Below are positions 31,399-36,116 of a stretch of 64,000 nt of DNA, piece after piece. Location of the stretch: the NCBI RefSeq assembly GCF_054482525.1, contig NZ_CM137006.1; one strand, 5' to 3'. Position numbers and translations under genes: made by a program. The notes below the pieces were generated by a model. The model was not told the DNA's origin. It saw only the letters and a program-made list of their open reading frames with translations, and searched no databases. The stretch's first letter is position 1. Each line of letters opens with the position of its first letter.

Positions 31399-31449
31399 GC
31401 TCCGTTTAACATTCATTGAGAAAACTGATGCTACTGTGTCAACGATCCG

Positions 31450-31541
31450 TTATCAGTGCAGGAAAATGCCTGTTAGCGTAAAAGCAAAACACAAATCTAT
31501 CCATGCAAGCATTCACCGCCGGTTTACTGGCGGTTTTTTTT
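31450..31541 (+). ncRNA. mgrR: candidate small RNA MgrR (PhoP-regulated), 3' end defined by hairpin ccgcc/ggcgg plus T8
   Basis: intrinsic terminator 31516-31541 in the dgcZ-mgtS gap where MgrR maps in K-12; 5' end not determined; could instead be the dgcZ terminator. Confidence 0.35.
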
Positions 31542-31616
31542 CGCCGTCATAAAAATCAGGCCCCTTGTACAAAGTTGTAACAAGGGGCCGGTTAGGTGAG
31601 GGATTATCTCCGTTCA

Positions 31617-31712
31617 TTAGTCATCCCATTTGTGGCTGAAATACGCGGCCAGAAAACCAGAAAATAAAATTATTCCCAGTACGGCCATAAAAATATTCAT
31701 ATTACCCAGCAT
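31617..31712 (-). CDS. mgtS: 31-aa small membrane protein MgtS (YneM), MLGNMNIFMAVLGIILFSGFLAAYFSHKWDD
   Basis: ATG with GGAGG Shine-Dalgarno; TAA stop followed by hairpin 31561-31589; below ORF-track cutoff. Confidence 0.8.
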   Translation of the reverse strand: MLGNMNIFMAVLGIILFSGFLAAYFSHKWDD

Positions 31713-31838: not shown

Positions 31839-33026
31839 TCAACAAAGCGCGGGCTGCCCCCACGGTCTTGCACGAATTCCTTTTAACATCAGCACCCACG
31901 CAGCAATGATCACCAACGCTAAGATGATAAACAGCGAGAAAGGTGGCAGACTGGTAAGCACTATGCCACTCACTAATGGGTTAATCGCCGCACCAAGCCA
32001 GCCTAAAGACTGAGCGGAAAAATAGCTGGCTTTCATTCCTGGCGGCGCAATATGGTCAATCAACATATACTCGCCCGGCGCATAAATGATTTCACCGACA
32101 GTAAATACCGCAGCTGACATACCCCACAATAGCAGGCTGTTGCCGGAAAAAATAAAACCGACCAGCCCAATGACGAAACAGAGGGTGCCTGCTGTCATCA
32201 GCGCGCGGATGTTAGCCGGGTTAAGTCGGCGGCCCACGGAATATTGCAACGTAACTACCATGGCAGCATTAACCGGAAGAACAACCGCAACCACCTTTTC
32301 GGCAAAATCACCATCAGCAATCACCATCACATATTGTGAAATGCACGAGGCAAATGCGCCGCTAACAAAGGAAGCCAGAAAACCAGAGCAGGTAAACCAC
32401 AACAGTGCTTTATCTTGTAATAAAACTTTCGGCGACCAGGCACTGCCTGTTTCCGTGGCGATGATTTTCTCGCTGCGCTTTACCCAAATTTGAATGAAAA
32501 GCATGGGAAACGCGGAACAGATAGCTGCCAGCCAAAAGGGCAGATTGATGCTCTGCATCACCAACAGCGTGCCGAGCGGCGGACCGATGGTCCAGCCAAT
32601 GTTGAGCATGGTGTAGTTGATTGAGAAGATTTTCGTTTTGCTGGTGGAGGAAAGATTGTCGGCAAACCAGGCTTTCAACACGGTAGCAAAAACGGAATAG
32701 GCGCAGTTAATAAGGGCAAAAAAGAGCACCACCAGCGTCACGTTATTCACTAAAGGAATGGCAATAAAACCGCTGGCGAAGGCGGTAATTGCCAGTAACA
32801 TATAGCGTTTCTTGTCGAACTTATCCGCCAGGATACCAAAACCGAGGCTAAAAACGACGCCAATAGTGAGCGCAATTGTCATCGCATAACCGATTAGATC
32901 GACACTCAGGTTGTACTGGCGACTCAAGTAAATGGTCATAAACGGCAGCGTAGCGCCGCGTCCGATGGTTAATAACAACGACGAGGCAAGAAGGGCGCTG
33001 GTAGAGCGTCGTAGGGATAAGTTCAT
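31839..33026 (-). CDS. ydeE: MFS transporter YdeE (dipeptide/drug efflux)
   Basis: 395-aa MFS-type ORF matches YdeE. Confidence 0.88.
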   Translation of the reverse strand: MNLSLRRSTSALLASSLLLTIGRGATLPFMTIYLSRQYNLSVDLIGYAMTIALTIGVVFSLGFGILADKFDKKRYMLLAITAFASGFIAIPLVNNVTLVVLFFALINCAYSVFATVLKAWFADNLSSTSKTKIFSINYTMLNIGWTIGPPLGTLLVMQSINLPFWLAAICSAFPMLFIQIWVKRSEKIIATETGSAWSPKVLLQDKALLWFTCSGFLASFVSGAFASCISQYVMVIADGDFAEKVVAVVLPVNAAMVVTLQYSVGRRLNPANIRALMTAGTLCFVIGLVGFIFSGNSLLLWGMSAAVFTVGEIIYAPGEYMLIDHIAPPGMKASYFSAQSLGWLGAAINPLVSGIVLTSLPPFSLFIILALVIIAAWVLMLKGIRARPWGQPALC

Positions 33027-34150: not shown

Positions 34151-34369
34151 CTACATAGCGTGTTGATTATAATAGGGCACGCCGAGCGCATCCGACTTAT
34201 CACTGCCAGTACCCATGTGATTTAAATCAAACGGTGGTTGTTCCTGCGATGGGGGAACAACCACGACATTGGCACAGGAAGTAACAACCTGCTGCGTGGT
34301 TTGTTCCGCAATGCCCTGCGTGGAAAAGAGAATAAACGCAGCTGCTATTGCGGATAAAAGTGGTTTCAT
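34151..34369 (-). CDS. marB: multiple antibiotic resistance protein MarB (periplasmic)
   Basis: 72 aa with signal peptide, directly downstream of marA. Confidence 0.88.
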   Translation of the reverse strand: MKPLLSAIAAAFILFSTQGIAEQTTQQVVTSCANVVVVPPSQEQPPFDLNHMGTGSDKSDALGVPYYNQHAM

Positions 34370-34400: not shown

Positions 34401-34790
34401 CTAGCTGTTGTAATGATTTAATGGATGTAAAAAGCGCGATTCGCCCTGCATATTGGTCATCCGGTATTTATGCGGCGGAACATCAAAGTAATTTTTGAAG
34501 GTTCGGGTCAGAGTTTGTTGCGACTCGAAGCCATATCGTTCTGCCAGATAGAGTATTGGCTCGTTACTTTCCTTCAGCTTTTGCGCGATTTCCGTCATCT
34601 TACGGCTGCGGATGTATTGGCCTAATGAATGACCGGTTTCTTTTTTAAACATCCGTTGCAGGTGCCATTTGGAGTAACCCGAACGCTCTGACACTTTCTC
34701 CAGTGACAGTGGCGATTCCAGGTTGTCCTCGATCCAGTCCAAAATGCTATGAATGGTAATAGCGTCAGTATTGCGTCTGGACATCGTCAT
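34401..34790 (-). CDS. marA: AraC/XylS-family transcriptional activator MarA
   Basis: 129-aa ORF ([50 protein letters not shown]...) recognised as MarA. Confidence 0.93.
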
Positions 34791-34804
34791 ACCTCTTTTT
34801 TTGT

Positions 34805-35239
34805 TTACGGCAGGACTTTCTTAAGCAAATGCTCAAGTGTTGCCACTTCGTCCGCCGTCAGGTTTTTTGTTAATTCTTGATGCAGGTCCTGGCCAACTAA
34901 TTGATGGCATTGTTCACATATTGCCGCGCCGCTGGTGGTAAGTTTTACCAGTACGCCGCGCTTGTCATTCGGGTTCGGCAACCTTTCCACCCAGCCTTTA
35001 CAGACCAGGCGATCCAGCATACGGGTCAGCGCTCCCAGGTCGACCGACAACACTTTTTTCAGTTCAACCGGAGTAATACACGCCGCGCAGCGGATAGAGC
35101 AGAGCACCTTAAACTGTGCCGCGGTAATATCCAGCGGAGACAGATACTCGTTAAGCAGGCGATCTTTCTTCTGATTAACCATATGGATTAAGCGACCCAA
35201 TGGAATAATTTCATTGAACAGATCGCTGGTACTTTTCAC
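34805..35239 (-). CDS. marR: MarR repressor (144 aa, GTG start) carrying G103S and Y137H relative to K-12
   Basis: translation recognised; codon 103 is AGC (plus 34931-34933) and codon 137 is CAT (plus 34829-34831). Confidence 0.93.
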
Positions 35240-35244
35240 ATTAG

Positions 35245-35338
35245 TTGCCCTGGCAAGTAATTAGTTGCAGGGGATAATATTGCCCAGGCAAGTATAAGTC
35301 AAATGAATGAATTGACCGATGCCACGTTTTGCTAAATC
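35245..35338 (-). promoter_or_regulatory. marO: marO: marRAB promoter with two MarR palindromes (35245-35256, 35280-35291), -10 TATTAT (35274-35279), -35 TTGACT (35297-35302) and marbox (35319-35338)
   Basis: TTGCCnGGGCAA palindromes, hexamers with 17-bp spacer and marbox GATTTAGCAAAACGTGGCAT read on minus strand; matches known marO layout. Confidence 0.85.
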
Positions 35339-35450
35339 GGTTCAAGTTTTGGTCAGTGCGATGCAAGGTTAGCTAAAGAGTGACACTTTATCGTTGTTTA
35401 CCCCTTATACTTTTCGCTGATAACCCAGATACACAGGATAACAACCACCA

Positions 35451-36116
35451 ATGTTAGATTTATTTAAAGCAATTGGCTTGGGGTTGGTGGTGTTACTACC
35501 GTTAGCTAACCCATTAACAACTGTCGCGTTATTTCTTGGCCTGGCAGGCAACATGAACAGTGCCGAACGTAATCGTCAGTCGTTGATGGCCTCGGTGTAC
35601 GTCTTTGCCATCATGATGGTGGCGTATTACGCCGGGCAACTGGTGATGGATACATTTGGCATTTCGATTCCCGGTCTGCGAATTGCAGGCGGCTTAATCG
35701 TCGCGTTTATCGGTTTTCGGATGCTCTTTCCGCAACAGAAAGCAATTGATTCACCGGAAGCGAAAAGCAAGTCGGAAGAGCTGGAAGATGAACCCAGTGC
35801 CAATATTGCCTTTGTACCACTGGCAATGCCAAGTACCGCCGGTCCGGGAACCATTGCAATGATTATTAGCTCGGCGTCCACAGTGCGTCAGAGTTCAACC
35901 TTCGCTGATTGGGTGCTGATGGTTGCGCCGCCGCTGATCTTTTTCCTGGTGGCGGTTATTTTGTGGGGAAGCCTACGCAGCTCTGGCGCAATTATGCGGC
36001 TGGTGGGCAAGGGAGGCATTGAAGCGATCTCCCGCCTGATGGGATTCCTGCTGGTATGTATGGGTGTGCAGTTTATTATTAACGGCATTCTGGAAATCAT
36101 TAAAACGTACCATTAA
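35451..36116 (+). CDS. marC: MarC-family inner-membrane protein
   Basis: 221-aa membrane ORF divergent from marRAB. Confidence 0.9.

Follow-up and report, generated by a model that had tools for sequence, protein, structure and literature searches.

The marR gene of E. coli K-12 MG1655 is a close described relative of the gene studied here. Its product (Gly103/Tyr137; PDB 1JGS, 3VOD, 3VOE, 3VB2, 4JBA and 5H3R) has the same residue as ours at 142 of 144 positions, and the two loci also share the operator, the marbox and the MarA and MarC proteins. Another is the G103S/Y137H polymorphism of clinical, animal and environmental E. coli, from which our gene does not differ: it shows the same codon changes relative to K-12, likewise paired. 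This variant has been described as the commonest form of MarR and as having no relation to the level of resistance (PMC7082582, PMC4317672, PMC8597741, PMC11753663), and it was the most common MarR variant among Norwegian isolates (PMC7082582). Some isolates with the pair add K62R or S3N (PMC4317672, PMC8597741); our sequence has neither, codon 62 being AAA, a synonymous Lys. True derepressing mar mutations affect the same gene and regulatory region. They include L33R, A70T, G15S and M74T in the winged helix or dimer core of MarR and a 20-bp duplication of marO, and drugs select for them, with a rise in MIC as the result (PMC11753663, PMC3832178).

The window, by which we mean the whole 64,000-nucleotide stretch of DNA that was analysed (RefSeq assembly GCF_054482525.1, contig NZ_CM137006.1), carries marR, the gene of the marRAB repressor, on its minus strand at 34805-35239 in the list of open reading frames. 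The gene encodes 144 amino acids between a GTG start and a TAA stop and is full length, with no truncation. Its product matched the NCBIfam MarR equivalog model NF008565 over residues 1-144 of 144 (320.1 bits against a cut-off of 240) and the Pfam winged-helix domain PF01047 over residues 38-96 (66.6 bits), and shared 99% identity with the E. coli MarR chains of known structure. NCBIfam models also named MarA, MarB and MarC, in the gene order marC <- marO -> marR-marA-marB. The equivalog match, the winged-helix domain and this gene context all identify the product as the MarR of E. coli, repressor of marRAB.

Codon 103 (34931-34933, minus strand; gct on the plus strand) was read directly as AGC, encoding Ser, and codon 137 (34829-34831, minus strand; atg on the plus strand) as CAT, encoding His, just as the original prediction had reported; the interval 34829-34933 spans exactly codon 137 to codon 103. 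The reference for a codon-by-codon comparison was the MG1655 gene (NC_000913.3, 1619120-1619554), which has GGC (Gly) and TAT (Tyr) at these positions, so that Gly103/Tyr137 and not Ser103/His137 is indeed the K-12 form. G103S (GGC>AGC) and Y137H (TAT>CAT) were the sole amino-acid differences between the two proteins, and four further codons (62, 63, 70 and 120) differed synonymously. As these are the sole differences in the protein and the operator matches that of K-12, the window has none of the derepressing changes named above (L33R, A70T, G15S, M74T and the 20-bp marO duplication).

The frequency of the two alleles was determined in 5,426 complete E. coli genomes by megablast with haplotype queries of 100 nt, each made of two 50-mers, one per site, in which every 28-base seed holds the variable base. 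Both pieces of the Ser103 and His137 query were found in 4,207 genomes (77.5%; 4,224 with any piece), and both pieces of the Gly103 and Tyr137 query in 1,188 (21.9%; 1,194 with any piece). The two sets of genomes were essentially disjoint, overlapping in a handful, and the queries were therefore allele-specific. Partial matches, which represent mixed haplotypes or local variants, amounted to at most about 23 genomes, with mixed haplotypes below 0.5%. A separate query specific at site 137 alone gave concordant counts (His137 in 4,218 genomes vs Tyr137 in 1,193). The residues are thus both widespread and paired, as had been proposed. The Ser/His set includes O157:H7 and PCN033, while the Gly/Tyr set contains K-12, BL21 and mostly small genomes (4.5-4.9 Mb); the Tyr137 allele was missing from an O25b:H4-ST131 genome. 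A sample of 60 Gly/Tyr genomes was rich in K-12 derivatives (W3110, TG1, RR1, ET12567 and NEB Turbo) and BL21. Since laboratory derivatives are so well represented in this set, the K-12 allele is less common in nature than 22%. One rare mixed haplotype, Ser103 with Tyr137, was seen in marR of E. coli A34 (NZ_CP028741.1, from Genetta maculata); it may be either a step in the evolution from one common allele to the other or the product of recombination between them within the gene. These counts also bear on the trivial possibility that the differences at codons 103 and 137 are sequencing or assembly errors. The same two codons recur in all 4,207 genomes, and a 1,401-bp mar segment of the window matches three complete, independent E. 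coli genomes (PCN033, SCU-102 and 19KM1776) with 100% identity. We give an error no credence.

The original prediction had called the two residues substitutions. That they differ from K-12 stands; the direction of change is reversed. A scan of Enterobacteriaceae species representatives, with one genome per species, yielded 80 MarR loci encoding 69 distinct MarR sequences. The codons AGC and CAT were present in E. albertii, E. whittamii, Escherichia sp. E1V33, Escherichia sp. MOD1-EC7003 and the GTDB representative of E. coli, and this spread across Escherichia species shows that Ser103/His137 is ancestral in the genus. On these comparisons Ser103/His137 is the ancestral majority allele, and K-12 MG1655, unlike the window, has derived minority residues at both positions, which arose through two transitions within E. 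coli. Both positions are naturally variable. Position 103 is Asp in 44 of the 80 representatives, His in 17, Glu in 13, Ser in 5 and Gly in 1; position 137 is His in 36, Tyr in 22, Leu in 21 and Ser in 1. When the 144 MarR columns were ranked by variability over the 69 distinct sequences, 103 came third and 137 sixth, and 76 columns were invariant. The sole Gly103 among the 80 stems from SMXE01000224.1, a 31-kb contig that is identical to K-12 although it belongs to a metagenome-assembled genome (MAG) with the label 'Caldithrix sp.'; the MarR and MarB proteins that it encodes are both identical to those of K-12. Another contig with an unexpected label, CACSKA010000003.1 from a genome called 'Chryseobacterium sp. 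18061', encodes a MarR 88% identical to that of the window. Both contigs are probably contaminating or mis-binned enterobacterial sequence.

With this in mind, we considered where the two residues lie in the protein. An AlphaFold model built from 30 orthologues, of moderate confidence (mean pLDDT 75.8), assigned residues 68-80 to the recognition helix, 84-89 and 92-100 to the wing strands, 102-124 to alpha5 and 129-142 to alpha6. In this model residue 103 is the second residue of alpha5, just past the wing strands, and residue 137 lies within the C-terminal helix alpha6. Both fall outside the Pfam winged-helix domain (38-96). Since the two positions are outside the DNA-binding domain and naturally variable, the allele would be functionally neutral. 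An alternative is that both alleles are functional repressors that differ quantitatively, for example in how stable they are, how tightly they bind marO or how strongly they respond to salicylate or copper; in that case the K-12 pair would represent co-adaptation or a lineage-specific tuning of the mar response. Consistent with this idea, the two sites are almost perfectly linked, and Gly103 is unique to the K-12-like allele among the 80 representatives, the others having Asp, Glu, His or Ser. According to the model, Asp, Glu or Ser at 103 would fit the preference of a helix start and Gly would be an unusual choice. Furthermore, six solved E. coli MarR structures match the window MarR at near-full identity, and 3voe, the only one aligned residue by residue, carries the K-12 allele; the Ser103/His137 form appears to be structurally uncharacterised. 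However, tight linkage over 102 bp is expected from proximity alone. Columns 103 and 137 do not co-vary across the genera of Enterobacteriaceae, where Asp103 pairs with Leu, His or Tyr at 137. By helix geometry, the start of alpha5 and the middle of alpha6 would be about 20 Angstrom apart, and no difference in phenotype has been reported in the literature examined. We therefore consider it unlikely that the two alleles differ in this way. That K-12 Gly103/Tyr137 MarR is measurably different from the ancestral Ser103/His137 form, for example in stability, marO affinity or inducer sensitivity, seems to us a little less likely still. In that case, neither quantitative mar biology nor the MarR structures, all of which appear to have been obtained with the K-12 allele, would fully represent the species.

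The original prediction had described the operator and marbox as intact. The marC-marR intergenic region (marO; 35240-35450, minus strand as for the elements within it) was compared base by base with K-12. The -35 box TTGACT (35297-35302), the -10 box TATTAT (35274-35279), the MarR operator palindromes TTGCCTGGGCAA at site I (35280-35291) and TTGCCAGGGCAA at site II (35245-35256), and the marbox GATTTAGCAAAACGTGGCAT (35319-35338) are all the same as in K-12, and the two sequences are identical from 35351, 18 bp upstream of the marbox, down to the GTG of marR. The names and roles of these elements in the window are those established for marO (Cohen 1993; Martin and Rosner 1995, 1997). Their roles are partly restated in more recent papers (PMC3832178, PMC7355843), one of which also reports that Fis binds upstream of the marbox (PMC7355843). 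Just four SNPs separate the intergenic region from that of K-12, at 35352, 35356, 35369 and 35393, and all lie upstream of the marbox. A putative Fis site, GACCAAAACTTGAAC, is placed at 35340-35354 by its likeness to the consensus; the SNP at 35352 falls inside it, at a degenerate position of the consensus, and that at 35356 just outside. In the alignment, the window bases at 35352 and 35369 match other Escherichia species, with K-12 as the odd one out, so that the window base is ancestral and the K-12 base derived at both positions. The base at 35393 is found in the window alone among the nine sequences aligned.

Past the marR stop, ahead of the marA Shine-Dalgarno sequence, lies a poly-A run (34796-34802, minus strand) of naturally variable length: it is A7 in the window against A6 in K-12, with A7 again in two further Escherichia species and A8 in both E. 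albertii and E. whittamii. The marA Shine-Dalgarno GAGG and its spacing to the ATG are the same as in K-12. Following it is marA (34401-34784, minus strand), which encodes 127 amino acids identical to the K-12 protein and scored 294 bits against the NCBIfam MarA equivalog. The marC gene (35451-36116, plus strand) is transcribed divergently from marR, and its protein too is identical to that of K-12. The 72-residue product of marB (34151-34369, minus strand) shows six differences from K-12, namely S5L, L12F, A17T, V20I, P27Q and H44Q. A similar combination of S5L, L12F, A17T, V20I and H44Q has been tabulated for clinical strains (PMC8597741), and Q27 occurred in none of the eight other loci compared. 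Leu5 and Gln44 are common to all Escherichia outgroups and thus ancestral in Escherichia. K-12 therefore differs from the window in having derived MarB residues (S5 and H44) and, upstream of the marbox, a derived base at each of two positions in marO. The check for additional changes that had been proposed alongside the original observation thus turned up the four synonymous differences in marR, the four upstream SNPs and the one extra A, and operator and marbox proved base-for-base identical to K-12.

In the literature, the pair has also been linked to resistance. Among CARD/RGI 'strict' hits, both Y137H and G103S appear in the category 'MarR mutations conferring resistance' (PMC12053146), and two genome reports state a resistance association for the pair (PMC11504656, PMC12216380). 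Based on such reports, G103S/Y137H could be seen as a loss or weakening of MarR function that would lead to partial derepression of marRAB, more AcrAB-TolC efflux and low-level multidrug resistance. A resistance mutation of this kind should be derived and absent from susceptible populations, but the pair is present in 77.5% of the complete E. coli genomes, in every other Escherichia species examined and in susceptible isolates. It should also alter a conserved DNA-binding or dimerisation residue or truncate the protein, but here the ORF is full length and the two positions are among the most variable of MarR and lie outside residues 38-96. Phenotypic studies point the same way. The pair showed 'no significant association' with any level of levofloxacin resistance and was present in fully susceptible isolates with levofloxacin MICs of 0.016-0.25 ug/mL (PMC4317672). 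In another study, a parent strain with S103/H137 was susceptible to tetracycline and chloramphenicol, and its resistant mutants had gained L33R, A70T or G15S in MarR. Since these additional MarR changes were selected atop the Ser/His allele, the Ser/His protein must have been repressing (PMC11753663). The activity of the repressor has also been reported to be unaffected by the two changes. Moreover, were the pair a derepressed state, a constitutive Mar phenotype would be expected in most E. coli as well as in the ancestor of the genus. We regard a contribution of the pair to resistance as highly improbable, and both the published phenotypes and the comparative evidence favour the view, already part of the original prediction, that the pair would not by itself derepress marRAB.

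The relationship of the window to PCN033 provides some information on local ancestry. None of the 5,426 complete E. coli genomes matched the window over its whole length, and no match to its left half exceeded 99.4% identity. PCN033 was 99.35% identical over about 62 kb, with an uneven distribution of mismatches: there were approximately 9 in the interval 32.9-63.6 kb vs about 1.2% divergence in 1.2-32.9 kb. The change in similarity is sharp, at about position 32900, inside ydeE (31839-33026) and roughly 1.9 kb from marR. This points to a recombination junction inside ydeE beside the mar locus. With a junction so near, the mar haplotype would track local ancestry and not necessarily that of the whole genome. 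Clermont typing markers are absent from the window. Between ydeE and dgcZ, at 31410-31623, lies the sole Rfam match of the window, the Hfq-binding small RNA STnc560 (279 bits); the K-12 annotation has the small RNA MgrR in this interval.

Several other features of the window can be compared with the PCN033 annotation. Nothing in the PCN033 stretch corresponds to the first 1.25 kb of the window. Within it, a 344-codon membrane-protein ORF, which we take to be tqsA (autoinducer-2 transporter), is intact at 352-1386 on the minus strand; at the corresponding position PCN033 has only a pseudogene, a truncated 'pheromone autoinducer 2 transporter', with a phage terminase gene nearby. The strain from which the window derives thus appears to be free of the PCN033 prophage insertion at tqsA. 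At the other end of the window, hipB is followed by no more than 127 codons from the N-terminal part of hipA, and the remnant of a transposase gene adjoins these on the opposite strand (62366-63454), where PCN033 is annotated with a partial HipA and a frameshifted ISNCY transposase. The hipB gene appears to encode an orphan antitoxin whose toxin gene is disrupted. Adjoining the lsr operon is an intact ORF of 1,806 amino acids at 56753-62173, annotated in PCN033 as an 'ECSE_1600 family autotransporter'.

Taken together, these analyses make it very probable that the window contains an intact wild-type marRAB locus with the common ancestral MarR allele, which is functionally neutral, is expected to be a normal repressor and marks a lineage that is not K-12-like. 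Ser103 and His137 are already known in E. coli MarR. Based on the comparative evidence and on published phenotypes, we infer that MarR repression would be normal in this strain. We predict that the Ser103/His137 protein functions as a dimeric winged-helix repressor that binds marO at site I, between the -35 and -10 boxes, and at site II, over the marR ribosome-binding site, and that it would keep marA expression low until an inducer releases MarR. Its differences from K-12 reflect changes of Ser103 to Gly and of His137 to Tyr that were gained by K-12 and its relatives, and not a mutation of the window strain. The original prediction took the pair as marking a lineage rather than as grounds for calling resistance, and this holds, with the qualification that the marker says only 'not the K-12-like lineage'.

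This study also has implications for how marR sequences are read. Scoring Ser103/His137 against K-12 leads pipelines and several genome reports to list MarR 'resistance mutations' (PMC12053146, PMC11504656, PMC12216380), and treating these residues as a resistance determinant would flag most of E. coli. In conclusion, the marR gene of the window supports no inference of resistance, and its biology is that of an ordinary wild-type mar locus.
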